A DNA stretch of 64,000 bases, from the NCBI GenBank assembly GCA_017510525.1, contig JAFWNC010000018.1:4408-68407 (forward strand), written 5' to 3'. The notes below the pieces were generated by a model. The model was not told the DNA's origin. It worked only from the letters and a program-made list of their open reading frames with translations, and did not search any database. Of this stretch, positions 1,789-53,848 are shown piece after piece; position 1 is the stretch's first letter, and the number at the start of each line of letters is the position of its first letter. The stretch comes from Clostridia bacterium. Lineage in GTDB: Bacteria > Bacillota > Clostridia > TANB77 > CAG-508. A program made the translations under genes and the position numbers.

Positions 1789-1864
1789 CATCCGTAGCGG
1801 AGAACTAAAGTTCTCCATGTAGGGGCGACTATCAGTCGCCCGCTCTCCTTGACCTACCCTATAC
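1789..1864. repeat. Composite GC-rich hairpin repeat (module A CGTAGCGGAGAACTAAAGTTCTCCAT + module B GTAGGGGCGACtatcaGTCGCCC + tail GCTCTCCTTGACCTACCCTATAC)
   Basis: Direct sequence match to about 15 other intergenic loci in this window; GC-rich inverted repeats in an AT-rich background. Confidence 0.7.
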
Positions 1865-1872
1865 AAAACAAC

Positions 1873-2349
1873 CTATAACTCAATCTCAATCTTTCTCTCG
1901 GTTGAAATATATTGTCTATAACTAACCCCACAAGTATCAAACATCATCTTAGAAGCCTTAACCCCATCAGTATCAGCATATTTATCATCTTTATAAATAA
2001 TCTCTTTAATTCCAGATTGAATAATCGCCTTTGCACACTCATTACAAGGAAATAAACCAACATAAATCTTCGTTCCCTCTAAATTTCCTCTATAATTTAA
2101 AATAGCATTAAGTTCCCCATGACAAACATAAGCATACTTTGTATCTAAAAAATTACCTTCTCTATCCCACTTCATAATATCATCATGAAGCCCACGAGGC
2201 GCACCATTATAACCCATAGACAAAATTCTGTTATCTTTACTAACAATACAAGCACCAACTTGAGTATTAGGATCTTTGCTCCTCTTAGCTGATAAAAGCG
2301 CAACTCCCATAAAATATTCATCCCATGAAATATAATCTTCTCTCTTCAT
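1873..2349 (-). CDS. comEB: dCMP deaminase (ComEB family, cytidine/deoxycytidylate deaminase zinc-binding)
   Basis: HGELNAI...PCNECAKAI zinc-binding motifs. Start set at MKREDYISWDEYFMG (ATG 2347-2349), which has GGAGGTGG 4 nt upstream; the longer ORF-track N-terminus is an upstream extension. Confidence 0.8.
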   Translation of the reverse strand: MKREDYISWDEYFMGVALLSAKRSKDPNTQVGACIVSKDNRILSMGYNGAPRGLHDDIMKWDREGNFLDTKYAYVCHGELNAILNYRGNLEGTKIYVGLFPCNECAKAIIQSGIKEIIYKDDKYADTDGVKASKMMFDTCGVSYRQYISTERKIEIEL

Positions 2350-2439
2350 ATTCCACCTCCTAAACATATACCTACATTTTATCACAACTAACACTAAAGT
2401 CAACAACAATTTTAGGTGTTCAAAGGGGACGGAGAAAAG

Positions 2440-2466
2440 CAAAAAGGGGACGCGCACCCCTTTCAC
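2440..2466 (-). terminator. GC hairpin AAAGGGGACGCGCACCCCTTTC immediately after the spoIIP stop; likely intrinsic terminator
   Basis: Inverted repeat read directly; lies between the convergent-looking ends of spoIIP and the comEB leader. Confidence 0.45.
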
Positions 2467-3572
2467 TTCATAACCTCATCAATAACCTCAGCCAAATACT
2501 TCATACTATTCAAAGCCTCGTCCAAAGTATTTCCAGTAGCACCAACCTCAATAATACAAGACCCTCTAGCCACACTCTGGTTATACCTATATTTTGTAAG
2601 CATAATAGGTTTAAAAAGTCCAGGATACATCTCATTACCCTTCTCCTGGATTTTTATAGCAAGCTTTAAATTCTCATTCCAATTTGGATGATATAAACCA
2701 CCCTCACTACTCCCCATAACAAACATAAGTTGAGCGCAATATTCATCACCAATCTTAACCTTTGGTCCATAAGAACTATCACCCAAAGCATCTCTATGTA
2801 AATCAATAACAAGTTCTGCAGGTGTTGAATTTACAACACCCTGAATAGTTTCCAAAGAACGTGTATATGACCCAGAATAATCAGGATAATCATGATAAGT
2901 CACATCATGAACAACATTATATCCCTTACCAATAAGTAATTCTGTAAGTTCAGTTCCAACCCTAGCAACACTATAATCTAAATCAGTTGTTCTATAATTA
3001 CCAGTTTGTACATAATTAAAACTTTCTGAAGGAGTATAACTCTCACAAGTATGAGTATGGAAAATAACAATATCACTCTTATTATTAAAATAAATATCTG
3101 GAACTAACATATCCTCAGTCAGCTCAAAACTAGTACCATTTCTAATTAGAACACTCCCATATGAATCCGTAAAAGTATCACTCTTATTATTCTCACTAAC
3201 AACCTCAGTTGTAACATTTCTAATGTCTTTTACAACTTCAGCACTTTCCTCTAAACTATCGTCAACCTCATATTCCATATATTCATCAAATATAAAAGAA
3301 TCAACAAAACTAAGTTCTTTGTTAATCACATTTAAATCACTATTATTGTTCTGCTTTTTCTCTCCACTAGTAATACCAATATTTTCATCTATGCACTCTA
3401 TAAAAGTCTTATTATTTAGCGTGTTAAATTTCTTTTTAATACTATTCTCAAATTTAATATTTTTTACTAATTTATACCCTCTAAAAACACTAAAAACAAC
3501 AAGGCAAAAAATAAAAGATTTAAACATAAACTTAACCAAATCATTAAGCCTAATAACCCTAAAATTAATCAT
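2463..3572 (-). CDS. spoIIP: Stage II sporulation protein P (SpoIIP cell-wall hydrolase family) with N-terminal TM segment
   Basis: C-terminal two thirds (HTHTCESY...IDLHRDA...MYPGLFKP...ARGSCIIEVGATGNTLDEA) match the SpoIIP / N-acetylmuramoyl-L-alanine amidase family. AGGAG lies 10 nt upstream of ATG 3570-3572. Confidence 0.75.
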   Translation of the reverse strand: MINFRVIRLNDLVKFMFKSFIFCLVVFSVFRGYKLVKNIKFENSIKKKFNTLNNKTFIECIDENIGITSGEKKQNNNSDLNVINKELSFVDSFIFDEYMEYEVDDSLEESAEVVKDIRNVTTEVVSENNKSDTFTDSYGSVLIRNGTSFELTEDMLVPDIYFNNKSDIVIFHTHTCESYTPSESFNYVQTGNYRTTDLDYSVARVGTELTELLIGKGYNVVHDVTYHDYPDYSGSYTRSLETIQGVVNSTPAELVIDLHRDALGDSSYGPKVKIGDEYCAQLMFVMGSSEGGLYHPNWNENLKLAIKIQEKGNEMYPGLFKPIMLTKYRYNQSVARGSCIIEVGATGNTLDEALNSMKYLAEVIDEVMK

Positions 3573-3626
3573 ATAAATAAAACTCCTACTTTAAATAGTA
3601 TTCAATTTTATTTATATTATGATAAC

Positions 3627-3690
3627 GAAAAATGGTAACGTGAACTTTTGGGGACGCACACCGAAAGTTCACATTACCATTTTTCTTATT
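3627..3690 (-). terminator. Long hairpin AATGGTAACGTGAACTTTT...GAAAGTTCACATTACCATT followed by a T-run, downstream of the MBL hydrolase stop
   Basis: 19-bp arms with T-runs on both sides; contains the GGGGACG motif also seen in other terminator hairpins. Confidence 0.6.
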
Positions 3691-4306
3691 CATACAAATA
3701 TCTTTCATCTTTAATCGCAGTTGGAGCTCCATGTCCAGGATAAATAATAACATCATCAGGTAAAGTCAAAACCTTATTCTTTATAGAATCAATAATTTTT
3801 TCTTCACTACCAGTTGGTAAATCAGTTCTACCACGAGTTCTATAAAAAATAGTATCACCTGAAAATAAAAGCTTATTTTCCTCATTATATAAACATAAAC
3901 ACCCCTCAGTATGTCCAGGAGTTGAAATTACTTTAAACTCTAAATTTCCAACATGAATAACATCTCCATCATCAACCCTAGAATCAGCATCAAATCCTAA
4001 ATCTTCAAACCTTATCAAACTAATTTCGTCATTTTTAAGGCCATCATAATCAGCTCTACTTATAAGAACTTTTCCTCCAAATTTTTCCCTAATCTCAGGA
4101 ACAGCCCCAATATGATCGAAATGGCAATGTGTTAAAAATATATATTTTACACTAACACCCAATAAATTAATCATATCAATAACTTTTTCCGCTTCGCTTC
4201 CCGGATCAATAATCATAGCTTCTTTACTCTCATCATCAGCAATAATATAACAATTAGTAACCAACATACTTTTAGGTATTCTTAACTTTAACTTTTTTAA
4301 AATCAT
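3686..4306 (-). CDS. MBL-fold metallo-hydrolase (hydroxyacylglutathione hydrolase-like)
   Basis: HCHFDH metal-binding motif plus a downstream His/Asp pattern. Start set at MILKKLKL (ATG 4304-4306) with AAAGGGAG upstream. Confidence 0.75.
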   Translation of the reverse strand: MILKKLKLRIPKSMLVTNCYIIADDESKEAMIIDPGSEAEKVIDMINLLGVSVKYIFLTHCHFDHIGAVPEIREKFGGKVLISRADYDGLKNDEISLIRFEDLGFDADSRVDDGDVIHVGNLEFKVISTPGHTEGCLCLYNEENKLLFSGDTIFYRTRGRTDLPTGSEEKIIDSIKNKVLTLPDDVIIYPGHGAPTAIKDERYLYE

Positions 4307-4356: not shown

Positions 4357-4392
4357 CTATTCGTAGCGGAGATACTCAAAGTTCTCCATAAA
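4357..4392. repeat. Module A hairpin repeat (TTCGTAGCGGAGATACTCAAAGTTCTCCATA)
   Basis: Same family as 1789..1864; stem variant with flanks conserved. Confidence 0.6.
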
Positions 4393-8415: not shown

Positions 8416-8442
8416 AAGGACGACCAATGGTCGCCCCTACAA
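8416..8442. repeat. Module B hairpin (GGACGACCAATGGTCGCCCCTAC), reverse-loop orientation, downstream of pilin-like paralog 1
   Basis: Near-palindromic GC hairpin; the homologous copy downstream of paralog 2 is at 15063-15085. Confidence 0.6.
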
Positions 8443-8457: not shown

Positions 8458-9972
8458 TTAAAACTTACTAGGATCAACTTCAATTGTTCCATAATAACCA
8501 GAATTTTCAACCAAAGTAGCAACCGCCTCATTTTCAACATAAACAGTTTCTATATCTCCAAAAGCACCATTTCCTATAGTTATAACACTTGATGGGATAT
8601 TTATTGATGTTAAGCTTTCACAACTAGAAAATGCTAATTCGCCTATACTTGTAACACTTGATGGAATATTTATTGATGTTAGGCAAAAACAACCAGAAAA
8701 TGCACAACTATCAATAGTAGTGACACTTGATGGAATACTAATTGATGTTAAACTAATACAGTCCTGAAATGCATTAGTGCCTATACTTGTAACACTTAAT
8801 GGGATATTTATTGATGTTAAATGATGACAACTAATAAATGCACTGTCACCAATACTTGTTACACCTGAAGGAATTGAAATTGATTTTAAATCAGCACATC
8901 CACTAAAATCATTATTTCCTATACTTAATAAAGAATTTGGTAATGTTACATATTCAACTCTATGAATACTGTCAAAAAATCTATTTAAATTTGTAATACT
9001 ACTTTGTGATGCAAAAATAACATTTGTTCTTGGTAGTGATTTAAGATCTTGGTTTGTTTCATAATCACTTGCTACAAGAGTTGTAACACTAGCTGGAATT
9101 ATTAACGATGATTCATCAGAACTTGTTGCTCCATTTTTTTGAGTATACGCAGATCCTGCAGATAAATTTGGAACATATTCAAAATCACCATATCCATATA
9201 TACTCCATGGAGCCCATCTACTCATTTCTAATTCTGAGTCATAAGGTATACTAGGATATTTCAATCCTGTAACACTATAAGTTTCATTATTATGTTCAAC
9301 CTGATAAGGAACAACCAATTTTCTTAATTTTGTAGCAACTTCTTGAGCTTCTTGTGCTGATTGAATTGTAGTTCTTCCTGGCTCTAAAATATTATCAAAA
9401 TTTAAACCTGTAGCTGTAGCTGTTTTATTTGTATCATCATATGTATATGTAAATAAACTTTCACAAGCTTCCATTTCCTCTTGCGTTGCTAAATTTCCAT
9501 ATTGACTCTCAATCATAGCTGATGATGAACCGCCCCCTGATGATCCTCCACCTGATTGATTTGAACTTTCTGATGACTTTGTTCTTCCTAAAATACTTCC
9601 ATCATCAGCAATTTGGAAATCATATCCTTTATATGTAATTATATAATTTTCTGTGTCAAAAGTTGCATCTGGATCTAATTCTATATTTAGCTTAATTTGT
9701 CCATAATCTTCATCAAACAAATAATCTCTAAAGCTTCCAACATAATCACTTGCTTTATAATCTATTTGAACTGCAGAAATAGCTAATCTTAATTCCTCCT
9801 CTATCTCTGATTCCTTAGAAGTCTCTTTTGCCTCATTGCTTCTCTTTAAAATACCATTATCACCAACTACCATTGCAATAGTTACACCTGCTAAAATCAA
9901 TAAAACAATAATTGTTATAACAAGTGCAATTAAGGTAATACCCTTTTTACCTTTGAAATTCAATAATCTCAT
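8458..9972 (-). CDS. Surface protein with prepilin-like N-terminal hydrophobic segment, Ser/Gly-rich linker and C-terminal BspA-type leucine-rich repeats (paralog 1)
   Basis: N-terminus MRLLNFKGKKGITLIALVITIIVLLILAGVTIAMVVGDNGIL resembles a class III (pilin-like) signal peptide lacking Glu+5. C-terminal tandem repeats of about 23 aa (SINIPSSVTSIG.xAF) match the BspA-type LRR. Strong GGAGGAG RBS. Confidence 0.6.
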   Translation of the reverse strand: MRLLNFKGKKGITLIALVITIIVLLILAGVTIAMVVGDNGILKRSNEAKETSKESEIEEELRLAISAVQIDYKASDYVGSFRDYLFDEDYGQIKLNIELDPDATFDTENYIITYKGYDFQIADDGSILGRTKSSESSNQSGGGSSGGGSSSAMIESQYGNLATQEEMEACESLFTYTYDDTNKTATATGLNFDNILEPGRTTIQSAQEAQEVATKLRKLVVPYQVEHNNETYSVTGLKYPSIPYDSELEMSRWAPWSIYGYGDFEYVPNLSAGSAYTQKNGATSSDESSLIIPASVTTLVASDYETNQDLKSLPRTNVIFASQSSITNLNRFFDSIHRVEYVTLPNSLLSIGNNDFSGCADLKSISIPSGVTSIGDSAFISCHHLTSINIPLSVTSIGTNAFQDCISLTSISIPSSVTTIDSCAFSGCFCLTSINIPSSVTSIGELAFSSCESLTSINIPSSVITIGNGAFGDIETVYVENEAVATLVENSGYYGTIEVDPSKF

Positions 9973-15007: not shown

Positions 15008-15087
15008 AAAACGTAGTGGTCGTTGTTCCCGAAGACCCATGTTCTCCAACGACATACAAAAAGGGCGACCAATGGCCGTCCCTACAC
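15008..15087. repeat. Degenerate module A plus module B hairpin (GGGCGACCAATGGCCGTCCCTAC), downstream of pilin-like paralog 2
   Basis: Homologous to 8416..8442 and its flank; the paralog 1 and 2 3' flanks are alignable. Confidence 0.55.
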
Positions 15088-15102: not shown

Positions 15103-16797
15103 TTAAAACCTACTAGCATCAACAACAATCGTTCCATTATAACCAGAATTTTCAACCAAAGTCTTAACCGCCTCAGTTTCAACATAAATAGTCGCATATA
15201 CACAATCAAATGCTTTTTCACCTATACTAATTACACTTGATGGTATATTAACCGAAGTCAAATTGCTACAATTTTCAAAAGCACTTTTACCTATAGTAGT
15301 TACACTTGATGGTATATTAATTGAAGTTAATCCATTACAATAATCAAATGCATATTCCCCAATACTAGTTACACTTGATGGTATATTAATTGAAGTTAAA
15401 CTATAACAACCTAAAAAAGTACTATCTCCGATACTAGTTACACCTGATGGTATATTAATTGAAGTTAAACTCAAGCACTCATAAAATGCACCATTTCCAA
15501 TGCTAGTTACAGTTGATGGAATATTTACTGATGTTATACTCTTGCACCAACAAAAAGCACCATTTTCAATTGATGTAGCACCGGAAGGTATATTAATAGA
15601 AAGTAAATCTATACATGAGGAAACATCTACATCTAATATAGAATCTGGTAATACTACATTTTCAACTCTATATACATTATTCAAAAATCTATTTAAATTA
15701 GTTATACTACTTCCAGATGAAAAAATAACATTAGTTCTTGGTAACGAATATCCCAATTCATTTGAATCATCGCTAGGAATAAGAGTTGTTACACTTGCTG
15801 GAATTATTAATGATGATTCATCAGAAGTTGTTGCTCCATTTTCACTAGTATAATAAGAACCTGCAGATAAATTTGGAACGCATCCGCTTGAAAAATCACA
15901 AGATCCTCCACTACTCCAAGGTGCCCATCCACTAGCACCATCGGCATAATCAGTCGACGTAGTCGGAGCATTTGGATACTTCAATCCAGTAACACTATAC
16001 ATTTCTCCATTATGCTCAACCTCATAAGGAACAACTAATGTTCTTAATGTTTCTGCTATTTGGGCAGCATCTTCAGCCGATTGTATATCTGTTCCATGCT
16101 CTGCATATGTTGGAACAATATTGGCAAAATTTAATCCTGTTGCTGTAGCTGTTTTATTTGTATCATCAAAAGTATATGTAAATAAACCTTCACAGGCTTC
16201 CACTTCCTCTTCAGTAACTAATCCGCCATATTGTTCCTCAATCATAGCTGAACTAGAACTTTCACCTGAACTTCCAGCCACGCTCCAATCTAATTTTCCA
16301 CTTGTTCCTATTACTGCACTTGTTAATTCTTTATTTGATGTATCTTTTACACTTACCTCATATACAGTTTCACTCTCGACAGTTTTTGTATCTGCTGTTA
16401 CTGTATATTCTCCTGCTTTATTTGCCCTTCCTGCATTAATCTGAACACATACATATTCTGCTGCATTATTATAAGTTGTTGCTACAACTGTATTATCAGC
16501 CACTTGGGCAACACCATTTTCCTTCATAGCCTTAATTTCACCGTTGCTACTTGAATCAGAAGTTCTAAAATTAATTGTCTGATATTCTATAACCCAATCT
16601 GCAACTTTTAAATCAATTTCTTCCTGTATCTTTGCAATATTCGTAGTCTCTTTCGCTTCATTGCTTCGACTCAAAATTCCATTATCACCAACTACCATTG
16701 CAATAGTTACACCTGCTAAAATCAATAAAACAATAATTGTTATAACAAGTGCAATCAATGTAATACCCTTTTTACCTTTGAAATTCAATAATTTCAT
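15103..16797 (-). CDS. Surface protein with prepilin-like N-terminus and BspA-type leucine-rich repeats (paralog 2)
   Basis: First about 40 aa nearly identical to paralogs 1 and 3. About 8 LRR units (SINIPSGVTSIG...). Conserved C-terminal 30 aa (VENSGYNGTIVVDASRF). The upstream 95 bp, including the RBS, are identical to those of paralog 1. Confidence 0.6.
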   Translation of the reverse strand: MKLLNFKGKKGITLIALVITIIVLLILAGVTIAMVVGDNGILSRSNEAKETTNIAKIQEEIDLKVADWVIEYQTINFRTSDSSSNGEIKAMKENGVAQVADNTVVATTYNNAAEYVCVQINAGRANKAGEYTVTADTKTVESETVYEVSVKDTSNKELTSAVIGTSGKLDWSVAGSSGESSSSAMIEEQYGGLVTEEEVEACEGLFTYTFDDTNKTATATGLNFANIVPTYAEHGTDIQSAEDAAQIAETLRTLVVPYEVEHNGEMYSVTGLKYPNAPTTSTDYADGASGWAPWSSGGSCDFSSGCVPNLSAGSYYTSENGATTSDESSLIIPASVTTLIPSDDSNELGYSLPRTNVIFSSGSSITNLNRFLNNVYRVENVVLPDSILDVDVSSCIDLLSINIPSGATSIENGAFCWCKSITSVNIPSTVTSIGNGAFYECLSLTSINIPSGVTSIGDSTFLGCYSLTSINIPSSVTSIGEYAFDYCNGLTSINIPSSVTTIGKSAFENCSNLTSVNIPSSVISIGEKAFDCVYATIYVETEAVKTLVENSGYNGTIVVDASRF

Positions 16798-19425: not shown

Positions 19426-19556
19426 CATTCGTAGCGGAGCACTAAAGTGCTCCATGTAAGGGCGGGTTTCCATGCCCTCCCATCTCTTGTGTCTGCATCT
19501 ACACTCGTAGGGGCGACCATTGGTCGTCCGCTCTCCAACGCCTTACCCTACACAAA
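19426..19556. repeat. Composite repeat: module A (CGTAGCGGAGCACTAAAGTGCTCCAT), module C (GTAAGGGCGGGTTTCCATGCCCTCCC), module B (GTAGGGGCGACCATTGGTCGTCC) and tail
   Basis: All three hairpin modules sit in one locus between the two ABC transporter genes. Confidence 0.7.
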
Positions 19557-21430: not shown

Positions 21431-21465
21431 AACATCGTAGTGGAGATACTCAAGGTTCTCCATAA
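21431..21465. repeat. Module A hairpin variant (CATCGTAGTGGAGATACTCAAGGTTCTCCAT)
   Basis: Same family; near-identical to the 4357 copy. Confidence 0.55.
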
Positions 21466-21468
21466 AAA

Positions 21469-23013
21469 CTACCTTGCATACTTAATAGCTCTAGTCTCTC
21501 TAATAACATTAACCTTAATTTGTCCAGGATATTCCATCTCAGACTCAATCTTCTGAGCAACATCCCTAGCCATAACAACCATTTCACTATCTGAAACCTG
21601 TTCAGGCTTAACAATAAGTCTAATCTCTCTACCAGCTTGAATTGCAAAAGACTTGTCAACACCCTCAAAAGAATCAGCAATCTCTTCTAATTGAGTTAAT
21701 CTCTTGATATAAGTCTCTAAAGTCTCTCTTCTAGCACCAGGTCTAGATGCAGAAATTGCATCAGCAGCTTGTACTAAAACAGCTTCCAAAGACTTAGGTT
21801 CAACATCACCATGATGAGCTTCAACAGCATTGATAACAATATCATTTTCTTTATATTTCTTTAAAATATCAACACCAATCTCAACATGAGTACCTTCCAT
21901 ATCATGGTCAAGAGCTTTACCAATATCATGTAATAAACCAGCTCTTCTAGCAATCTTAGGATTGATTCCAAGTTCCTCAGCCATAATTCTAGCTAAATTA
22001 GAAACCTCAATAGAGTGATTTAAAACATTTTGTCCATAACTAGTTCTATATTTTAGTTTACCAATTAATCTAACAATATCATCTGGAAGACCATTAACAC
22101 CAGTCTCAAGAACAGCTCTTTCACCCTCTTCTTTAATAATAGCCTCAATCTCTTCTTTGGCCTTCTCAACCATTTCCTCGATTTTAGCAGGATGAATTCT
22201 ACCATCTTCTAATAGTTTCTCTAAAGCAATTCTAGCAACCTCTCTTCTTAAAGGATCAAAACCAGAAATAATTACAGCCTCTGGAGTATCATCAATAATT
22301 AAATCAATTCCAGTAAGAGTTTCAAGAGTTTTAATATTTCTACCCTCTCTACCTATAATTCTTCCTTTCATTTCATCATTTGGAAGAGAAACAACTGAAA
22401 CCGTTGTCTCTGAAGTATGATCAGCAGCACACTTCTGAATTGCATAAGAAATAATTTCTTTAGCATTTTTACTAGACTCTTCTTTAGCCTTAGCCTCTAA
22501 ATCTCTAATTAAATTTGCCTTCTCAGTAGTAATTTGTTTTTCTAAGCTATCCAATAATTGTTTTTTAGCTTCCTCAACAGTTAAACCAGATACACGTTGC
22601 AATTCTTCTTGTTCTTTTAGCTTCATATCCTCTAATTCTTGTCTAACTTCATCATTTTCTTGAATTTTTTTATCCAAATCCTTTTCTCTTCTTTCAACAG
22701 AATCGATTCTTTTCTCAAGATTTTCCTCTTTTTGCATCATTCTCTTTTCTTGAATTTGGATTTCACTTCTTCTCTCTTTAATCTCTTGATCTAATTCATT
22801 TCTAAGTTGCATCATTTCTTCTCTAGCCTTAAAAATTTCTTCCCTTTTAGTATTTTCAGCTTCTATCTTAACATTTTCAAGTAATCTTTTTGCTTCATTC
22901 TCAGCGCTTTGAATTTTTGACTCAGCGATTTTCTTTCTAATAGCAACACCAACAGGTATGAAAATAGCTGCCGAGATTAAAAGAGTAATTACAACTATAA
23001 GTACTTCACTCAT
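21469..23013 (-). CDS. rny: Ribonuclease Y (N-terminal TM, coiled-coil, KH and HD domains)
   Basis: 514 aa. KH ([12 protein letters not shown]) and HD (HSIEV...LLHDIGK) motifs; C-terminus [14 protein letters not shown] is typical of RNase Y. Confidence 0.9.
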
Positions 23014-31296: not shown

Positions 31297-31313
31297 ACTC
31301 TTTTCAATCCTTT

Positions 31314-32843: not shown

Positions 32844-33479
32844 CTACCATCCCCACCGAAGAACCTTAATTCTTCGATTAAGGTTGCCGACTTGCTCCTC
32901 ATCCTCATGATTGTCAAGGAAGACATCAATGTCATTCCCGTCAATCAAACCTCCGGTGTCCTCTGCTCTCCAGACAACGCCCTCGATTAAATCAACTCCT
33001 TCAATCATAAGTAAAGATCCTTCAGGAAAAACATCCGTTGCACAAGTACGATATGGTATAGCTTTCAGCCCTGAAGCTGTTCCCCAATCACCATTCTCGG
33101 GATCGATCTCAAACTCCCCATTACAATATGGGCAGTACCCGGTGACGATCCCTTCGTCGTACCAAAGCACAGGATAAAATTTCCCCTGAAACCAAGCACC
33201 ATCTTCCACCTCTTCCTCGGTTATTATCTCCTCAGTTGTAGTTTCAGTTGGCTCTTCGGTTGTAATCTCAGAAGTCTCCTCGATAGTAGGCTCTTCAATT
33301 ATCGATTGAACCACTGTAGGCTCTTCGATAATCAATTCTTCACTATCATCTGCTTTAGCCTGTATAAAAAAAACTCCTATACAAACTGCTAAAACAGCTG
33401 CCGTGACTAATACAATAGCCTTTCTCCGGGAAATTCTGAGTACTGCGTGATGATGTCTTCTCCTAAACCGAATTTTCAT
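32844..33479 (-). CDS. 3D-domain (MltA-like / YabE C-terminal domain) cell-wall-associated protein with signal anchor and acidic Glu/Thr-rich linker
   Basis: C-terminal GYCPYCNG...TASGL...RTCATD...DTGGLIDGNDIDVF is the 3D (Asp-Asp-Asp) domain. Contains an in-frame CGG Arg codon at 32856-32858 read in zero frame (KVLRWGW-stop). Confidence 0.7.
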   Translation of the reverse strand: MKIRFRRRHHHAVLRISRRKAIVLVTAAVLAVCIGVFFIQAKADDSEELIIEEPTVVQSIIEEPTIEETSEITTEEPTETTTEEIITEEEVEDGAWFQGKFYPVLWYDEGIVTGYCPYCNGEFEIDPENGDWGTASGLKAIPYRTCATDVFPEGSLLMIEGVDLIEGVVWRAEDTGGLIDGNDIDVFLDNHEDEEQVGNLNRRIKVLRWGW

Positions 33480-33591
33480 ACATGAAAACCCCTTTCTAAA
33501 TATAATATAAGTAAACGTACCTAAACAAATTATACCACATTATGTAGATTAAGGCAAATATTTACGCAATATTTGGGGACATCCATAAATT

Positions 33592-33677
33592 TATTTGGGC
33601 GGGCATGGAAACCCGCCCATCTCCTTGCATTACCCAATACATTCGTAGCGGAATTACAAAAGTGCTCCATCCTTGAC
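33592..33677. repeat. Composite repeat: perfect module C hairpin (GGGCGGGCATGGAAACCCGCCC), tail (ATCTCCTTGCATTACCCAATAC) and degenerate module A
   Basis: Lies in the divergent region between the 3D-domain gene (minus) and rqcH (plus). Confidence 0.65.
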
Positions 33678-33725
33678 TTTCCAAAAATAAAATTGTAATA
33701 TATATATATATATAAGGAGGATATT

Positions 33726-35399
33726 ATGGCATTTGATGGTATTGTTACAAAAGCAATTGTTACTGAACTTGAAAATAATTTAATCGGCGCAAAAGTCAAT
33801 AAAGTACTTGAACCAAATAAAAACGAAATAATTTTAAATTTATATAATAATAGATTAAACTACGCATTAGACATAAACATTCATCCTGAAAACTATAAAA
33901 TCAGTCTAACAACTTACTCAAAACCCAATCCACTAAATGCATTAAATTTCTGTATGCTTCTTAGAAAATATTTAATAGGATTTAAAATAAAGTCTATAAA
34001 AAGCTATGATTTAGAAAGATGTATTGAAATAGAATTTGAAGGTAACAATGAACTAAAAGATAGTGTTACTTATAAGTTAATTATAGAACTTATGGGAAGA
34101 CGCAGTAATATAGTTTTCTTAAATCAAAAAAATCAAATTATAGATTCAATAAAACATATTATAACAAAAACTCGTGAAGTTCTACCTGCTAGAGAATATG
34201 TATTCCCAGAAATAACAAAAACATCTTTCTTAGAACTAAAGAATTTTGATGAATTTTATGAACTAATTTCAGCTACTTCATATACAAGTATCTCTTCTAA
34301 TATCACTGAAACATTTATAGGATTTAGCAAACCATTTATTCAAAACATATTATACAACCTTGATATTTCAGATAATACAAAAGATATTAATGACTTAAAA
34401 GAACTATATGATTACATAGTTCGTATCTTCTCTAATTTTGGAACAAATAATATTTACTGTAAACAATTAAAAAACGACGACTTTACAATAGACTTCTCTG
34501 ACTTTGAATCTGATAAAATGATTAACTTTTATATAGATGACTTTTATCATAAAAAAGAAATAAATGATAACTTTAATAACAAAAAAGCTGAGTTATCAAA
34601 ACTAATTTTAGGAAGTCTAAAAAAATGCTCTAAAAAATTAGAAAATATCAATAGGAAACTAAAAGACTGCGAAAACATGGATAAATACAGAATATACGGC
34701 GAACTTCTAACTGCTAATCTATACAAATTAGACGGAAACTCTAACAAAGTTGTATTGGAAAACTATTATGATAATAACAAATTAATTGAAATACCTTTAG
34801 ATAGCTCTATTCCATATAATAAAAATGCTGAAAAATATTTCAAAAAATACAACAAACTAAAAAACACTCTCTCAATCGTATCAAAACAAAAAGAAGAAAC
34901 AGAACTAGAGCTTAGATACATTGAAAGTATTGTATATTCAATTACAACAGCAAAAACACTAAAAGACATTTCTGAAATACATGACGAATTTGTAGAAAAC
35001 GTAGAAATAAAAAAATTCTCAAACAAACCAACAAAGAAAAACAAAGAAAGCGATGACTTTAGAAATAAAATACAAAAATTTAATATAAATAATTTTGATG
35101 TTTATATTGGAAAAAACAATAAACAAAATGATTACTTAACACTACATTTTGCAAGCAAAGAAGACATCTGGTTCCATGTTCAAGACGCTCACGGCTCACA
35201 CGTTATTCTAAAAACAAATGGAAAAACTCCAGATGAAGACACTTTATATAAATGCGCCTTACTAGCAAAACAAAACAGCAAAGCAACACTAAGTAAAAAC
35301 GTATCAGTAGACTACACCTACATAAAATACGTAAAAAAACACCCTAATAAAAAACTAGGAATGGTACATTATACAGATTATCAAACAATAATCATCTAA
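33726..35399 (+). CDS. rqcH: Ribosome quality control protein RqcH (NFACT-N / FbpA / DUF814 family)
   Basis: 557 aa. NFACT-N domain at the N-terminus (MAFDGIVTKAIVTELENNLIGAKVNKV...EIILNLY), a coiled-coil middle, and C-terminal NFACT-R (DVYIGKNNKQNDYLT...DIWFHVQDAHGSHVIL). RBS AAGGAGG before the ATG. Confidence 0.85.
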   Translation: MAFDGIVTKAIVTELENNLIGAKVNKVLEPNKNEIILNLYNNRLNYALDINIHPENYKISLTTYSKPNPLNALNFCMLLRKYLIGFKIKSIKSYDLERCIEIEFEGNNELKDSVTYKLIIELMGRRSNIVFLNQKNQIIDSIKHIITKTREVLPAREYVFPEITKTSFLELKNFDEFYELISATSYTSISSNITETFIGFSKPFIQNILYNLDISDNTKDINDLKELYDYIVRIFSNFGTNNIYCKQLKNDDFTIDFSDFESDKMINFYIDDFYHKKEINDNFNNKKAELSKLILGSLKKCSKKLENINRKLKDCENMDKYRIYGELLTANLYKLDGNSNKVVLENYYDNNKLIEIPLDSSIPYNKNAEKYFKKYNKLKNTLSIVSKQKEETELELRYIESIVYSITTAKTLKDISEIHDEFVENVEIKKFSNKPTKKNKESDDFRNKIQKFNINNFDVYIGKNNKQNDYLTLHFASKEDIWFHVQDAHGSHVILKTNGKTPDEDTLYKCALLAKQNSKATLSKNVSVDYTYIKYVKKHPNKKLGMVHYTDYQTIII

Positions 35400-35461
35400 A
35401 AACAAAAAAGAACACTTACCAGAGGTATGTTAAGACATTTGGTAAGTGTCTTCTTTAGCTT

Positions 35462-36653
35462 TTATTTTATCAATTCTAATGTATCTTTTGCTATCATCAT
35501 TTCTTCATCTGTAGGGATTACATATACTTTTATCTTTGAATTTGGACTAGATATTAATATTTCTTCTCCACGTATTTTGTTTTTCTCTTCATCAATCTCT
35601 AATCCCATAAATTTCAAGTTATCACAAATTTTCTTTCTTGAATGGAATTGGTTTTCACCAACACCAGCTGTAAATGTAATTACATCAATTCCCTGTAAAG
35701 TAACAGCATAACTAGCTATGAATTGTGCAACTCTATATGCATATACATCTAATGCTAAGCTTGCTCTTTCATTTCCTTCTGCAGATGCCCCCTCAATATC
35801 TCTAAAATCAGCTGAAACGCCAGAAATTCCGAAAACTCCAGATTGTTTGTTTAATAATTTCTCAACTTCTTCAGTATTTAAATTTGCTTGATTCATTATA
35901 TAAGTTACAACAGAAGGATCTAAATCACCACTTCTAGCACACATTGGAATTCCACCAAGTGGAGTAAGTCCCATACTTGTATCTAAACTCTTTCCATCTT
36001 TCATGGCACATAAACTTGCACCGCTGACCTAAATGACAATTTACTATTTTTAAATCTGTTCTTCCCTCTAAAGCAGCAACTCTGTTTGCAATATATTTAT
36101 GTGATGTACCATGTGCTCCATATTTACGAACTCCATATTTTTCATACATCTCATAAGGAACTGGATATGTAAAAGTCTTAGCTGGCATTGTTTGATGAAA
36201 AGCAGTATCAAAAACAACCGCCATTTTTGCATTAGGCATTTCCTTTTGACAAGCTCTAATTCCAAGTATTGCTGCAGGATTATGAAGAGGTGCTAATTTA
36301 CTACAATCTTCAATTTTTTCAATTACATCCTCAGTAACTAAAACAGATTTATCAAAATATTCACCACCATGAACAATTCTATGACCAACAGCCTCAATTT
36401 CATCTAAGCTCTTTATAGTATTATATTTTGGACTTAATAACTGATCAACAATAATTTTTAAAGCCTCTTCATGGTTACTAACCTTTTCCTCAATAACAAC
36501 CTTCTCACCATTAACCTTATGAGTTAAGAAAGAATTCTCACCAATCCTTTCATAATTTCCTTTTGCCATAACCTCTTCTTTTTCCATATCAATCAATTGA
36601 TACTTCAAAGAAGAACTCCCGCAATTAACAACCAAAATTTTCATTTTTTCCAT
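35462..36653 (-). pseudogene. ackA: Acetate kinase, second tandem copy, interrupted by a +1 frameshift at 36021-36023 (extra C: CAG C GGT)
   Basis: ORFs 35934..36653 (N-terminal 239 aa) and 35462..36004 (C-terminal 180 aa). The intact paralog has CAG GGT GCT (HLGQGAS) at the same place; here CAG CGG TGC gives HLGQRCKFMCHER-stop. Whether this is a true pseudogene or a recoded gene depends on the nature of the recurrent C insertions. Confidence 0.75.
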
Positions 36654-36669
36654 CCTTTCATTTTATATA

Positions 36670-37863
36670 TTATTTATTTATAATTTCATTTGTTTCCTTT
36701 GCAATAATCAATTCCTCCTCAGTAGGAACAATCCAAAGCTTAACCCTAGAATCATCCTTAGACAACTCATATTCCATATTAGTAACCTTATTCTTCTCCT
36801 CATCAAGTTCAACACCCATGAAATTCAAATAAGAACAAATCATTTTTCTCTCATCAGGACCTTTTTCACCAACACCACCAGTGAAAGTAATAACATCAAC
36901 ACCATTCATAGTAACAGCATATTTTCCAATATATTGAGCAATTAAATAACAATAAACCTTCATTGCTAAATCAGCTCTCTCATTACCATTTGGAATCTCT
37001 CTTAAAATATCTCTATTATCATTTGAAATTCCAGAAATGCCATGTAATCCAGACTTTTTATTTAAAATCCTATCCATTTCCCTAGGAGTTAAATTTTCCT
37101 GTTCCATTATATATGTAACAACAGATGGATCCAAATCACCACTTCTTGAACCCATTGGAATTCCACCTAAAGGAGTTAACCCCATACTAGTATCAACACT
37201 TATACCATTTTGAATTGCACAAATACTAGCACCCTGACCTAAATGACAGCTTATTATTTTTAAATCTTTTATATCTTTATTTAAAATTTCAGCAATTCTA
37301 TGTGATACATATTTATGAGAAGTACCATGAGCACCATACTTACGAACACCATATTTTTCATAATATTCATATGGAATAGGATAAATATAATGCTCCTTTG
37401 GGATAGTTTGATGAAAAGCAGTATCAAAAACAGCAACATTAGGAACATCAGGTAATATTTTTTGAATTGCTCTTATTCCCTGTAAATGTGCTGGATTATG
37501 TAATGGAGCGTATCTAATTGCATCTTCTATTCCTTTAATAACATCCTCATCAATTATAGTCGCCTGCTTAAATCTCTCACCACCATGAACAACTCTATGT
37601 CCAACAGCTTCAATTTCATTAAAGCTTTTTATAGCTGGATAATCAGAATTAACGAGTTCTTCCATTACTATTTTTAGAGCTTCTTCATGAGAATAAACAT
37701 TTCTTTCTTTTTTATACTTTTCTCCATTAATTTTATGAGTAATTATTGAATTATACTGACCAATTCTTTCAATATTTCCTTTTGCAAGTACTTTCTCATT
37801 TTCCATATCAATTAAGCAATATTTCAAAGATGAACTTCCACAATTTACAACTAATACCTTCAT
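36670..37863 (-). CDS. ackA: Acetate kinase
   Basis: 397 aa. MKVLVVNCGSSSLKY N-terminus; conserved His, Arg and Glu residues throughout. Confidence 0.9.
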   Translation of the reverse strand: MKVLVVNCGSSSLKYCLIDMENEKVLAKGNIERIGQYNSIITHKINGEKYKKERNVYSHEEALKIVMEELVNSDYPAIKSFNEIEAVGHRVVHGGERFKQATIIDEDVIKGIEDAIRYAPLHNPAHLQGIRAIQKILPDVPNVAVFDTAFHQTIPKEHYIYPIPYEYYEKYGVRKYGAHGTSHKYVSHRIAEILNKDIKDLKIISCHLGQGASICAIQNGISVDTSMGLTPLGGIPMGSRSGDLDPSVVTYIMEQENLTPREMDRILNKKSGLHGISGISNDNRDILREIPNGNERADLAMKVYCYLIAQYIGKYAVTMNGVDVITFTGGVGEKGPDERKMICSYLNFMGVELDEEKNKVTNMEYELSKDDSRVKLWIVPTEEELIIAKETNEIINK

Positions 37864-37904
37864 ATACTTCTCCTTTTTTATATTATTTTAAATACTGTAT
37901 CTTT

Positions 37905-38897
37905 TTATTGAGCTTGAACTGCTGTAATTGCTACAACTCCAACTATATCATCACTTGTACATCCTCTAGATAAATCATTAACAGGTTTAGCAATTCCCTG
38001 GCAAATTGGTCCATAAGCTTCAGCTTTAGCTAATCTTTGAACAAGCTTGTATCCAATATTTCCAGCCTGTAAATCAGGGAAAACCAATGTGTTACACATA
38101 CCTGCAACATCACTATTTGGGGCTTTACTTTTTGCAACTTCTGGAACAATTGCAGCATCAAGCTGTAATTCTCCATCTACTTTTAACTCTGGATATCTTT
38201 CCTTAACAATTTTTGTTGCATTAGCAACTTTGTCAACCTCTTCAGCCTTTGCACTACCATAAGTCGAATAAGAAAGCATTCCAATCTTAGCTTGTTTTTC
38301 AGTTAAAAGTTCAAAACTTTCAGCCGAAGACTTTGCAATTTCAGCTAAACTCTCTGTATCAGGATTTTGATTTAATCCACAATCAGCAAAAACAAATACA
38401 CCATTTTCACCATATTCACACTCTGGAACAACCATTAAGAAAAATGCAGATACAAGCTTAGTTCCAGGAGCAGTTTTTAAAATCTGAAGAGCAGGTCTTA
38501 AAGTATCTGAAGTAGAATGAGCAGCACCAGACACCAAACCATCAGCATCATCATTTTTAACCATCATCATTCCGAAAAAAACAGGATCTAACATTTTTTC
38601 TTTAGCTTCCTCTTCTGTCATTCCTTTAGCTTTTCTAAGTTCATAAAATTTATTAACATATTCATCATATTTTTCAGACTTTTTAGGATCAACTATTTTT
38701 GCACTAGAAATATCAATTTCATTTTCTATTGCAATCATCTTAACAATATTTTCATCACCGACTAAAATAATATTAGCAAATTTTTCTTTTCCAATACTTT
38801 CCGCAGCTTTCAAAACACGAATATCAGTAGCCTCAGGAAGTACTATTGTTTTAATATTTTGCTTGGCTCTTATCTTTAAATTATCAATAAAACTCAT
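37905..38897 (-). CDS. pta: Phosphate acetyltransferase
   Basis: Start at MSFIDNLKIRAKQNIKTIVLPEATD (ATG 38895-38897) with GGAGGGG upstream. About 330 aa of the Pta/PtaB family. pta-ackA operon. Confidence 0.9.
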   Translation of the reverse strand: MSFIDNLKIRAKQNIKTIVLPEATDIRVLKAAESIGKEKFANIILVGDENIVKMIAIENEIDISSAKIVDPKKSEKYDEYVNKFYELRKAKGMTEEEAKEKMLDPVFFGMMMVKNDDADGLVSGAAHSTSDTLRPALQILKTAPGTKLVSAFFLMVVPECEYGENGVFVFADCGLNQNPDTESLAEIAKSSAESFELLTEKQAKIGMLSYSTYGSAKAEEVDKVANATKIVKERYPELKVDGELQLDAAIVPEVAKSKAPNSDVAGMCNTLVFPDLQAGNIGYKLVQRLAKAEAYGPICQGIAKPVNDLSRGCTSDDIVGVVAITAVQAQ

Positions 38898-39021
38898 TTT
38901 CCCCCTCCTTTTTCTAAAATACAAATTGATTATATAAAATTGTTTTTTTAAAGTCAAGAATTAATTAAAACTATAATTTATGATATAATAGGTAAAAATT
39001 AATTGTAGGAAGGAAAACAAA

Positions 39022-39895
39022 ATGCACCTAACATATAGTATAATAAAAGAAGACACATCAATTAGACAAATACTTAAACAACATTTTTCTATGTCTGAAC
39101 GCTATATATTAAAACTCAAAAAGAATAACTGTATATATTTAAACAAAATACAGTCTGGAATAAATACCGAAATACATGAAAATGATAAGCTTGAGATTAT
39201 TGATGAAATCCCTGAAGACAATTCAAATATTATCCCATCTTCAAATATTAAACTAAATATAATATTTGAAGATGAATATATGATTATAGTAAATAAACCT
39301 TCAGGAATCCCTGTACACCCATCAATGGCTCGTTATACAGACTCTCTTTCAAATGGAGTTAGATTGTATTTTGACAATATAGGTTTAAATAAAAAAATTA
39401 GGCCTGTAAACCGCCTAGATAAAGATACATCTGGATTAGTTGTATTTGCAAAAAATGAATACATTCAAGAAAGTCTAATTAAACAAATGAAATCAAACAC
39501 ATTTAAGAAAAAATATATTGCATTCTTAGAAGGAAAACTTGAAAAAAAATCAGGAACAATTGATGCACCAATTTCAAGAAAGGAAGGAAGTATAATAGAA
39601 AGATGTATTGATAGTAATGGAGATTCTTCAATCTCAAACTATAAAGTTATTGAAGAACTCGATAATTATTCAATAGTAGAATTTGAACTTCAAACCGGAA
39701 GAACACATCAAATAAGGGTTCATTCAAAACACATCGGCCATCCAATATTACGGAGATACTCTCTATGGTCATTCTTCTAAATTAATTAAAAGACAAGCAT
39801 TACATGCATACCAGATATCTTTTATTCATCCAATAAGTAAAAAAAATATAACCATAAAAATTGAATTACCCGAAGATATGGAAAGTTTAAAATGA
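39022..39895 (+). CDS. RluA-family pseudouridine synthase (RluD/YlyB-like, S4 + catalytic domain), with a +1 frameshift at 39751-39753 (extra C: TTA C GGA GAT)
   Basis: Zero frame reads HIGHPILRRYSLWSFF-stop. Removing the C gives GHPILGDTLYGHSSKLIKRQALHAYQISFIHPISKK...stop at 39893-39895, which is the conserved RluA C-terminal motif. Catalytic motif HRLDKDTSGLVVFAK is present. Confidence 0.8.
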
Positions 39896-39957
39896 GGTGT
39901 GCAATGGGGACGGAGAAATATGTGCATATTTCTCCGTCCCCATTGCACACCTCATTT
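39888..39957. terminator. 70-bp perfect palindrome (32-bp arms AAAATGAGGTGTGCAATGGGGACGGAGAAATA, loop TGTGCA) between the convergent rluA-family gene and the 82-aa gene; bidirectional terminator candidate
   Basis: Arms are exact reverse complements. Overlaps both stop codons. Contains the GGGGACGGAGAAA motif also present at 2424-2440. Confidence 0.6.
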
Positions 39958-40205
39958 TAAAGATACTTATACTCAAAATTAGACATATGTTCAAATAAAT
40001 CTCTAACATATTTTAAAGTTACAATCTCATTTTTTTGATGAGGGCATTTTTCTTTTTCAGTTATAAGCTCTTTTTTATAACAATTTTTCTTCATTTTATA
40101 TATTAAATATCTTAAATCCATATAATCAAAATAAATTTGAAAACCATCATCTAAATCTTTCCAAAATTGTTCAAAAGAATAATTCTCCATATACACTCCT
40201 CTCAT
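39957..40205 (-). CDS. Hypothetical 82-aa protein
   Basis: ORF only (MRGVYMENYSFEQFWKDL...); no recognised family. Confidence 0.35.
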   Translation of the reverse strand: MRGVYMENYSFEQFWKDLDDGFQIYFDYMDLRYLIYKMKKNCYKKELITEKEKCPHQKNEIVTLKYVRDLFEHMSNFEYKYL

Positions 40206-40286
40206 ATAACAATAACACCATTATAGGAGCAATAATTAGTTGTCCATCTTTGAAGAAATTGCCCTAGAAGTATTGCTCCGCTGGTC

Positions 40287-42441
<2,155 letters not shown>

Positions 42442-42445
42442 ATAT

Positions 42446-49937: not shown

Positions 49938-50008
49938 AAGGAGCACTTTAAGTATCTCCGCTACAATATTTTACATTTTTCGTAGCGGAGAACTAGAGTT
50001 CTCCATAA
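49938..50008. repeat. Inverted pair of module A hairpins (GGAGCACTTTAAGTATCTCCGCTACA reverse + TTCGTAGCGGAGAACTAGAGTTCTCCAT forward)
   Basis: Same arrangement as 27294-27356. Confidence 0.6.
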
Positions 50009-52708: not shown

Positions 52709-52781
52709 AATATATCCCCTCTTTCATTAAACTCTATACACAATATAAATTACAAATATTAAACAAAAATTAAATAAAAAA

Positions 52782-52864
52782 AATTTGTAGGGGCGACCAT
52801 TAGTCGTCCGTTTTTCTTCGACCTACCCCATACATTCGTAGCTTAGCACATTATTCTCCATATC
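52782..52864. repeat. Composite repeat: module B (TTTGTAGGGGCGACCATTAGTCGTCCG), tail (TTTCTTCGACCTACCCCATAC) and degenerate module A
   Basis: Same family; lies between the VTC gene stop and the DUF4956 start. Confidence 0.6.
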
Positions 52865-53577
52865 TAAACTACACATTCTTCACAAGTATTAGCTTTCAAA
52901 ATCAGCTGTGTATAAGCCTCACCATATTTTGAAAAACCACAAGGCATAATTCCAAGTTTATTAATCATTTTAACAAACCAAAGAGGAATTGAACCTAAAG
53001 TCTTAATCTCCATAATATACTTATCTTTCTCTAAAATATTTGTACCATAATTCAAAGTATCCAATTTCAAATCATAATCTCTAGCAATTACATTACTATC
53101 AAAAGTAACTCTAAAATCTCTATCATTTGGATCATAATAAGCTTCCCTTAAATAAGATAAATACATAGTTGGACGTAGATCATATCTTTCGAAATAATAA
53201 TCAAGTTCCTTTTTTATCTGTTTATTACTGCTTTCTAAAGAATCCTTATCTTTAATATATAACTCCAAATCAGAAAGCTTCATCTCAATTCTTCTTTTAC
53301 TAACAACACTATCGCATTTTCTCTTAATCTCTAAAAACACGCTACTATCTTTATTAGGCTTATTATAACTTCTTAATCTAATCTTCTCTTTAAAGAATGG
53401 CTTTGTTATAGAATGACTAATTAATTCATATAATCTAGAATCATAATAAACATTACAAATTGTACTAACGCCATGCTCATCCTCAATCATTCTCTCTGTC
53501 ATTAACCCTTTCAAAGCTTCAAATTGATTCTTGGTCAAAATATACTTTTTTTCAACTCTTCTAAAGATATCAGCCAT
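52864..53577 (-). CDS. VTC-domain protein (polyphosphate polymerase / CYTH-like domain family)
   Basis: MADIFRRVEKKYILTKNQ...EIKRK fits the VTC domain family. Commonly encoded next to DUF4956 genes. Confidence 0.6.
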   Translation of the reverse strand: MADIFRRVEKKYILTKNQFEALKGLMTERMIEDEHGVSTICNVYYDSRLYELISHSITKPFFKEKIRLRSYNKPNKDSSVFLEIKRKCDSVVSKRRIEMKLSDLELYIKDKDSLESSNKQIKKELDYYFERYDLRPTMYLSYLREAYYDPNDRDFRVTFDSNVIARDYDLKLDTLNYGTNILEKDKYIMEIKTLGSIPLWFVKMINKLGIMPCGFSKYGEAYTQLILKANTCEECVV

Positions 53578-53650
53578 TTTTTTCTCACTCCTTTAACTCT
53601 CATCTTAAACTTAATATAAACCCAAAAGATTAAACAAAAGTTAAATACAA

Positions 53651-53688
53651 AAAAGAAGTGTAAAATTAATTACACTTCTTTTTTTGTA
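53651..53688 (-). terminator. Hairpin AAGAAGTGTAAAATTAATTACACTTCTT followed by a T-run, just 3' of tRNA-Thr
   Basis: Read directly. Confidence 0.55.
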
Positions 53689-53764
53689 TGGAGCCATTAG
53701 GCGGAATCGAACCGCCGACCTACAGGTTACGAATCTGTTGCTCTACCAACTGAGCTATAATGGC
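53689..53764 (-). tRNA. tRNA-Thr (anticodon CGU)
   Basis: Minus strand GCCATTATAGCTCAGTTGGTAGAGCAACAGATTCGTAACCTGTAGGTCGGCGGTTCGATTCCGCCTAATGGCTCCA. 7-bp acceptor stem, D-arm GCTC/GAGC, anticodon loop TTCGTAA, T-arm GGCGG-TTCGATT-CCGCC, encoded CCA. Confidence 0.85.
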
Positions 53765-53815
53765 AAATACTTTGAAATTATAACATGTAAAACAATAAAT
53801 TACAATATAGATTTG

Positions 53816-53848
53816 TAGGGGCGAAGTTCCATCTTCGCCCTACATTGT
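53816..53848. repeat. Perfect GC palindrome GTAGGGGCGAAGTTCCATCTTCGCCCTAC (module B/C variant)
   Basis: Same family; 5' of the tRNA. Confidence 0.6.

Follow-up and report, generated by a model that had tools for sequence, protein, structure and literature searches.

The stretch analysed here, called the window throughout, comprises 64,000 nt of contig JAFWNC010000018.1 (positions 4,408-68,407 of the forward strand) from the Clostridia bacterium assembly GCA_017510525.1. Nearly all of its genes, among them spoIIP, relA/spoT, recJ, rny, dprA, folD, ligA, and pgsA, lie on the - strand, and the GC skew on the + strand is strongly negative, at about -0.37. The GC content is ~30%, intergenic DNA amounts to 7.5 kb (12% of the window), and 20-nt windows with at least 70% GC are scarce. 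About half of these GC-rich windows fall inside a family of intergenic hairpins that we describe here and that are probably repetitive extragenic palindromic (REP) elements.

A preliminary reading of the letters without database searches (the sequence-only reading) had proposed three hairpin modules, A, B, and C, together with a spacer, at 16 loci. We verified the coordinates of all 16. Each locus holds at least one module while shuffled sequences hold none, and the loci together contain ~27 hairpins, of which ~14 are of A type and ~13 of B/C type. They are as follows.

1793-1864, + strand: A (1793-1818), B (1819-1841), and tail (1842-1864), filling the whole gap between a dCMP-deaminase-like gene and a deacetylase gene; the hairpins fold independently.
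4362-4389, + strand: A variant with a 2-nt insertion (GGAGATAC..GTTCTCC), between relA/spoT and a metallo-β-lactamase-fold hydrolase gene.
8418-8440, - strand: B-type REP carrying GTAG in the gene sense, with TTTTTTT after it; terminator-like for a leucine-rich-repeat (LRR) protein gene.
15012-15058, + strand: GTAG plus a long-loop hairpin, GTCGTTG/CAACGAC (locus 15012-15085).
15063-15085, - strand: B-type REP followed by a T-run; the locus 15012-15085 is a paralogous copy of the 3' region at 8418.
19430-19553, + strand: gap separating two ATP-binding cassette (ABC) transporter genes, with A (19430-19455), C (19456-19481, tagged GTAA), B (19507-19529), and tail (19530-19553).
21436-21463, + strand: A-type REP in decay, flanked by the rny stop codon and by a conserved AT-rich terminator that is separate from it.
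23153-23290, + strand: C-like hairpin (23153-23177), B (23217-23239), tail (23240-23261), and A (23265-23290), downstream of rnpB.
25250-25290, + strand: remnant of a C hairpin, then an A-type REP (25265-25290).
26703-26794, no single strand: GTAGGGGAAGCTAGTAGCTTCCC REP (26703-26725, - strand), A variant (26745-26771, + strand), and tail (26772-26794).
27244-27400, no single strand: REPIN-like long hairpin around an inverted A pair, 27292-27317 (- strand) and 27331-27356 (+ strand), with GTAG ends inward and extended inverted arms.
33597-33670, + strand: divergent promoter region holding a C hairpin without tag (33597-33618), tail (33619-33640), and a degenerate A (33644-33670).
40289-40311, - strand: B-like REP GTAGGGGCGAGCGTTGCTCGTCC overlapping the ligA stop codon, of which GTAG provides the TAG.
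42340-42436, + strand: GC hairpin without tag, bordered by T/A runs (42340-42357), a tail-like stretch, A (42385-42410), and C (42411-42436), in the pgsA-ligA gap.
49938-50006, no single strand: inverted A pair, 49938-49965 (- strand) and 49981-50006 (+ strand); the - copy has a T-run after it in the gene sense.
52787-52861, + strand: B (52787-52809), tail (52810-52834), and a degenerate, stem-less A (52837-52861).
53815-53843, no strand assigned: 'double-foot' REP GTAGGGGCGAAGTTCCATCTTCGCCCTAC, bounded by GTAG and by CTAC and placed 50 nt upstream of a tRNA gene.

The two LRR genes (8458-9972 and 15103-16797) are paralogous, encode surface proteins, and contain internal 69-nt tandem repeats; the duplicated 3' region of each carries a B-type REP and a T-run.

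Repeat modules, tag, and structure

Module A has six matches in the window at up to three mismatches and none in 100 shuffles; with indel variants and degenerate copies included, there are 14 copies. Modules B and C have six and three matches, respectively, and none in shuffled sequence. The feature that the sequence-only reading missed is the tetranucleotide GTAG with which the modules start: it stands at a hairpin end in 24 of the 27 cases, one further copy has GTAA, and two hairpins (33597, 42340) are untagged. The tagged forms are GTAG-C-GGAGAAC..GTTCTCC, GTAG-GGGCGACC..GGTCGCCC, and GTAG-GGGCGGG..CCCGCCC, each with its GTAG placed directly at the hairpin foot, and several B copies have CTAC at the far end besides the 5' GTAG. 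We summarise the A type as YGTAGCGGAG-NN-C-TNNA-G-NN-CTCC-AY and the B/C type as GTAGGGGCG-variable stem-CGCCC(CTAC). Sites with GTAG and a perfect stem number 19 in the window, compared with 0-9 (mean ~4) in 20 Markov controls.

The stems are 7-8 bp long with loops of 3-8 nt. The modules fold independently, and the clusters reach z-scores of -4 to -5. Among the A copies of the window the stem occurs as GAGAAC/GTTCTC, GAGCAC/GTGCTC, and GACAAC/GTTGTC. Copies are arranged as singletons, as inverted pairs, and in clusters like bacterial interspersed mosaic elements (BIMEs). Both inverted A-A pairs of the sequence-only reading are present: the one given as 49940-50006 lies at 49938-50006, and the one given as 27294-27356 proved to be only the core of the larger hairpin at 27244-27400 (155 nt, -34.8 kcal/mol, z -6.1). 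Every convincing copy is intergenic, with a single one overlapping the ligA stop codon. Copies occupy 17 of the 47 intergenic gaps, so that their placement at nearly every operon boundary had been overstated.

The conserved spacer TCTCCTTGACCTACCCTATAC has two matches at up to three mismatches, four at up to five, and ~8 when degenerate copies are included, against none in shuffles. It is a ~22-nt unstructured 3' tail, CTCCTTGACCTACCCTATAC, that can follow any hairpin type. Pairing of this tail with GTAG to form a longer stem was considered and rejected because the tail remains unpaired in the folds. Beyond the window, a related tail was seen solely in a close relative (locus L133). A search of Rfam at gathering and E<=1 thresholds, covering the window and 20 related loci, gave no match at the repeats; in the window only rnpB and the tRNA passed.

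Distribution in other phyla and covariation of the stem

We scanned a collection with one genome per species for the A type using CGTAGCGGAGNNCTNNAGNNCTCC, which has 18 fixed bases and for which we estimate ~17 chance matches in the collection. The A type, YGTAGCGGAG-NN-CTNNAG-NN-CTCC-AY, was found at 94 or more loci in at least 12 phyla. The groups matched include Chloroflexota, Ignavibacteria, Zixibacteria, Acidobacteriota, Planctomycetota (Scalindua), Dadabacteria, Desulfobacterota, Gemmatimonadota, Verrucomicrobia, Bdellovibrionota, Pseudomonadota, a lineage of the candidate phyla radiation, Bacteroidota, and Clostridia. Among the matches listed, metagenome-assembled genomes (MAGs) often hold several copies, frequently as inverted pairs with GTAG outward. 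Hairpins of the GTAGGGGCG type co-occur with the A type in 28 loci, for example GTAGGGGCGACCGGCGGTCGCCC in a Chloroflexota MAG. A metagenome scan with an AT-rich loop variant of the A type returned 29 contigs of 22-35% GC, cow-rumen contigs among them.

The four N positions of the stem were free in the search. Both free stem pairs are Watson-Crick in 82 of the 96 A matches listed, in eight dinucleotide types, where 6 such matches were expected (p about 2e-83). Across all retrieved loci, 95.5% of cells at the two variable stem pairs are paired. In a set of 44 distinct sequences, for which GTAGCGGAG and CTCC were the sole selection, covariation is seen at pairs 10-19 and 11-18 (GC, AU, CG, UA), and the observed score was reached by none of 500 shuffles; C12, G17, T13, and A16 are each at least 90% conserved. 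In the unconstrained flanks, Y precedes GTAG and A-Y follows the stem. The compensatory stem variants that the sequence-only reading had noticed in the window are therefore borne out by the three variants seen there and by this covariation.

One conceivable source of the similarity between copies is segmental duplication of intergenic DNA along with neighbouring genes, with no mobility at all. Two B copies fit this, since those at 8418 and 15063 belong to the duplicated 3' regions of the two LRR paralogues. The remaining copies have unrelated flanks, their boundaries are sharp at the module edges, and the family is common to unrelated phyla. As the sole explanation, duplication is refuted for most copies and has a negligible probability.

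Association with RAYT genes

Clustering of the open reading frames (ORFs) around the 94 genome loci yielded only housekeeping families as recurrent neighbours; genes of REP-associated tyrosine transposases (RAYTs) emerged with a targeted search. The query was E. coli TnpA_REP, whose sequence matches PDB 4ER8 chain A exactly, and phmmer was run with it on the six-frame translations of every locus. Three ORFs were found in the genome loci and two in the 29 AT-rich metagenome loci. The RAYT-like genes are 150-160 aa in size. All five ORFs lie no more than 100 nt from an A-type repeat, and in four of the five loci inverted repeat copies stand on both sides; the upstream copy at L085 begins with GTGG, not GTAG. 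L104 is a complete REPtron from a 25%-GC rumen contig, consisting of a REP, a 151-aa ORF, and an inverted REP, and L111 is the same locus with the gene internally deleted. Homology to E. coli TnpA_REP is significant (E about 1e-10, 22-26% identity) with the catalytic residues conserved: the HUH motif, W94, Q95, H101, Y115, and N119 are invariant in the RAYT-like ORFs, and E100 is replaced by D.

The association also holds in the opposite direction. There are more than 5000 RAYT homologues in public data, some labelled 'transposase [Clostridia bacterium]', and homologues chosen by protein similarity have GTAG hairpins in their flanks in every case examined. Hairpins of the A type, GTAG[C/A]GGAG..., stand beside the homologues at L130 and L141. 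At L139, arrays of GTAGCGGCG/GTAGAGGAG flank a RAYT homologue beside gyrB. The L142 RAYT gene (P0094, 1501-1989) is flanked by the B/C-type GTAGGGGCGAACAGTGTTCGCCC (GTAGGGGCGAAC...), with copies inside the coding region too, and L143 has GTAGGGAACG-type hairpins. The arrangement of a RAYT with inverted REPs thus occurs outside the window with A-type repeats at L030, L056, L085, L104, L111, L130, L139, and L141 and with B/C-type repeats at L142. As a side observation, the L139 contig, from a related Clostridia, carries a tandem array of six 47-nt units with one REP each (GTAGAGGAGCACAGCGTGCTCC) at 877-1210 beside dnaN-recF-gyrB, and its RAYT gene sits between gyrB and a phosphoglucomutase gene.

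In the window itself no RAYT was found by phmmer with TnpA_REP against the six-frame translations. The enzyme would therefore be encoded elsewhere in the genome or have been lost, and the elements of the window would be non-autonomous, as the sequence-only reading had proposed.

Alternatively, the repeats could be remnants or miniatures of classical insertion sequences (ISs) with a non-RAYT transposase, such as the ends of IS200/IS605 TnpA-TnpB elements, known as palindrome-associated elements, or miniature inverted-repeat transposable elements (MITEs) with terminal inverted repeats. IS200/IS605 ends likewise combine a hairpin with a tetranucleotide (PMC8266576), and the adjoining proteins pass Pfam Y1_Tnp. 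The repeat-flanked HUH-Y1 genes are, however, single and short (150-166 aa), and in NCBIfam they score highest with NF047646 (REP-associated tyrosine transposase, REP_Tyr_transpos), at 64-107 bits, far above IS200, which gives 17-33 bits or is unlisted. No tnpB-sized ORF adjoins the RAYT in the REPtron loci examined, and the modules are found singly. No terminal inverted repeats flank the modules of the window, and the clean insertion of a 31-nt A copy between rnpB and rny has no target-site duplication, with at most an ambiguous AT. Descent from such an IS is very unlikely. Because terminal inverted repeats and target-site duplication are both absent, MITE is the wrong class; of the earlier 'REP/MITE-like' label, the REP half is upheld by the GTAG tags and the RAYT link.

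Gain and loss among relatives

Contigs of the same species (99.8-100% identity) showed no polymorphism at the repeat sites. More distant relatives differ at several orthologous positions. The pgsA-ligA gap is 140 nt with three hairpins in the window and 47 nt in L133 (RNase Y 94% identical), from which the cluster is absent. Between rnpB and rny, the window has the 31-nt A copy, a C-like hairpin, and B, where L137 (RNase Y 97%, ~87% DNA identity) has B only. The gap between the two ABC transporter genes (ABC1-ABC2) holds the tail, B, C, and A in 176 nt in the window and a single decayed B in 75 nt in L137. Between rny and ABC1, the A copy of the window is imperfect and the orthologous copy in L137 and L138 has lost its stem, while the separate AT-rich terminator just downstream is conserved. 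The end of ligA itself differs, reading TTG TAG in the window, with the stop codon taken from the GTAG of the REP (40308-40311), and AAG TAA in L133, which has no REP there.

Since the divergence from relatives ~87% identical in DNA, A and C copies have thus appeared or disappeared, and the B copies are older. Given this presence and absence at orthologous sites and the decay of A, the modules behave as separately insertable and deletable units that are individually unprotected by selection.

The same comparison revealed a difference in gene order. L133 has pgsA-ligA directly upstream of rnpB-rny, and the window (23013-42445) has ~17 kb of genes between them, which implies a rearrangement or insertion between close relatives.

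Possible RNA-level roles

The hairpins lie in 3' untranslated regions, intra-operon gaps, and promoter regions, and a T-run in the gene sense follows four of the 27 (one untagged hairpin and three copies that have GTAG in the sense orientation). Since only these four are terminator-like, RNA roles such as termination and 3'-end protection are possible but secondary to the REP identity. A rival proposal would be that the repeats are cis-acting RNA elements, terminators or structures stabilising 3' ends against exonucleases, kept by selection on the transcript and spread by convergence or local duplication with no transposase. Their intergenic position, their high GC content in a 30%-GC genome, and the four T-runs are compatible with this, and such roles are reported for E. 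coli REPs (background in PMC3733652). The other 23 hairpins nevertheless have no gene-sense T-run, and some copies lie beyond the terminator of rnpB or within a promoter region between divergent genes. At rny-ABC1 the terminator is a separate AT-rich hairpin, which is conserved while the REP upstream of it decays. Copies are present or absent among close relatives, and the 23-nt sequence itself turns up in 12 or more phyla and flanks RAYT genes. In four B copies the antisense strand pairs G with T, which becomes an A·C mismatch in the mRNA. Taken together, these observations make a primary RNA function unlikely. As a strand-folding test, the counts of G·T versus A·C mismatches, 9 versus 21 for the A type and 6 versus 2 for the B type, point opposite ways.

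Probable identity and proposed mechanism

We conclude that the repeats of the window are GTAG-tagged REP elements, that they comprise two or more types, and that the RAYT responsible for their spread has no gene in the window, and we assign this reading a probability of roughly 0.85. A 5' GT[AG]G on a short GC-rich palindrome is the canonical definition of a REP (PMC3733652; PMC6006769), and the GTAG...CTAC form is known as a 'double foot' REP (PMC6006769). By analogy with the systems of E. coli, Stenotrophomonas, and Marinomonas, the GTAG-bearing strand would fold into a hairpin when single-stranded. The RAYT/TnpA_REP protein, an HUH-Y1 nuclease related to IS200 transposases, would bind the hairpin foot, the loop, and GTAG. 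It would then cut beside the hairpin and transfer strands, so that copies leave and enter intergenic DNA. Inserted copies would be transcribed with the neighbouring genes, and a minority may have been co-opted as terminators.

Such recognition would account for the pattern of conservation, in which the foot, GTAG, and the loop-closing bases are fixed and two inner pairs are fixed only as complementary. SELEX (systematic evolution of ligands by exponential enrichment) on the short-stem REPs REP-Mb and REP-Sm found that GTAG, a perfect stem, and particular loop bases are needed, and that the identity of the stem is not (PMC8266576). As our sequence pattern matches these results, we take RAYT recognition of the folded GTAG strand to be the probable cause of the covariation. 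The sequence-only reading had called for selection on structure, in RNA or in a DNA cruciform. The structural part is supported by the covariation, and the constraint seems best explained by protein recognition of a single-stranded DNA hairpin and not by selection on RNA.

Several points weigh against the assignment. GTAG is on the + strand in ~19-20 copies and on the - strand in 6, a bias of about three quarters, and judged by GC skew the + strand serves as the leading-strand template, opposite to the IS608 model, in which the lagging-strand template is used. This strand bias is confounded with transcription direction, and in other AT-rich loci the copies show no bias of orientation relative to genes (15 versus 11). 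The NF047646 cut-off was passed by two of the four ORFs scanned, the GC-rich ones, and two Clostridial RAYT-like proteins fall under the curated value, with 67 and 64 bits compared with 80. The host's own RAYT was not found in the 64 kb examined, and the homologues P0032, P0072, P0005, P0094, and P0120 are REPtrons of other organisms. The assignment also leaves the conserved 3' tail without an explanation.

More tentatively, and with a chance we put somewhat below even, the A hairpin, the B hairpin (GTAGGGGCG...), and the short RAYTs may belong to one ancient or widely transferred REP-RAYT lineage whose DNA recognition code would have barely changed between 25%-GC rumen Clostridia and high-GC Chloroflexota, Acidobacteriota, Planctomycetota, and other lineages. 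If true, this would contradict the usual view that REPs, mainly studied in Proteobacteria, are lineage-specific and co-diverge fast with their RAYT.

Other sequence features of the window

A second, unrelated repeat family of ~100-130 nt is present in five copies, at 655-754, 23753-23842, 26854-26958, 29441-29550, and 32687-32787. On the gene-sense (-) strand it adopts a multi-stem fold with compensatory changes and G·U pairs, and in the 23753 copy the outer stem differs in sequence and still pairs. Its core is CTGCGGACGCTCYGCTATTTTT-[variable hairpin]-AAAAACACCTTG, and it has the 8-mer TAGCGGAG in common with module A. It has no Rfam match. Absence from the orthologous spoVS-rnpB spacer of L137 identifies the second family as an insertion. 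By coordinate arithmetic, one public assembly contig apparently ends within a copy of it, at about 26934.

Between a small ORF downstream of ligA and a convergent pseudouridine-synthase gene, 39886-39961 forms a perfect palindrome of 37 bp around a 2-nt centre. Its sole Rfam match is a spurious miRNA, and it may be a bidirectional terminator, unusually long for one. An AT-rich 12/18-nt periodic repeat (TTTGAATT/TTAG-type units) at 56191-56286 overlaps ORFs on both strands.

Comparison with known REP/RAYT systems

REPs and RAYTs are well known, mostly from Proteobacteria, and are hardly described in Firmicutes. The published surveys consulted list no Firmicutes among the GTAG families, and Clostridia appear only under group 1/subclass 2.1 RAYTs, which are without REPs. 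A literature search for the string GTAGCGGAG returned primers only, the supplements of PMC3733652 have no matching consensus, and a description of the A/B hairpin family was not found in the searchable literature. The sharing of one archetype across phyla might be the part that is new. Because a single archetype stands in very distant phyla, the recognition code of this RAYT clade (foot, GTAG, loop-closing C-G, loop T..A, and two covarying pairs) is directly testable. The assignment adds uncultured gut and rumen Clostridia to the hosts of canonical GTAG REP/RAYT systems and accounts for most of the odd GC-rich intergenic islands of an AT-rich genome; annotators should be cautious not to take such islands for small RNAs, terminators, or riboswitches. 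The repeats also break metagenome assemblies and are useful markers of strain differences.

The window elements resemble the canonical short-stem GTAG REPs (Bertels group 3/Quentin subclass 2.5) of Stenotrophomonas maltophilia, Marinomonas MWYL1, and Pseudomonas. GTAG lies 0-1 nt from the stem, which is perfect, GC-rich, and 7-8 bp long and closes a loop of 3-8 nt. The bases of the loop and of its closing pair are fixed while the stems accept compensatory swaps (cf. PMC8266576), single, inverted-pair, and cluster arrangements occur, and in other genomes inverted copies surround one short HUH-Y1 gene. The D in place of E100 of the E. coli enzyme is shared with subclasses 2.5 and 2.7 (PMC6006769). 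Unlike subclass 2.5, which is reported mainly from Xanthomonads and Pseudomonads, the present host is an AT-rich, spore-forming, uncultured Clostridia bacterium, one REP sequence is common to many phyla and not lineage-specific, and a conserved unstructured 3' tail is present.

B copies such as GTAGGGGCGACCATTGGTCGCCCCTAC and 53815-53843, with GTAG/CTAC ends, are similar to the double-foot REPs of subclass 2.4 (Bertels group 4), and the L142 RAYT holds REPs within its coding region, a trait called unique to 2.4 (PMC6006769). In contrast to that subclass, the RAYTs here have D100, which the same paper gives for 2.5 and 2.7, and the A-type RAYTs have no insertion between HUH and Y.

With the E. 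coli REP/BIME system and its TnpA_REP (YafM, PDB 4ER8), the window elements share the GTAG tag, the intergenic position, and the mosaic clusters, and the RAYT-like proteins found beside A-type repeats elsewhere are homologous to TnpA_REP. E. coli REPs are longer and require a bulge, whereas those of the window have no bulge, and IHF (integration host factor)-type spacer motifs were not identified. The A-A pairs at 27292-27356 and 49938-50006 can each form one long hairpin, as in the REP doublets termed REPINs (Bertels & Rainey), although most copies in the window are singletons or head-to-tail mixes of module types. The GTAG ends point inward in the A pairs of the window and outward in the pairs of other phyla.

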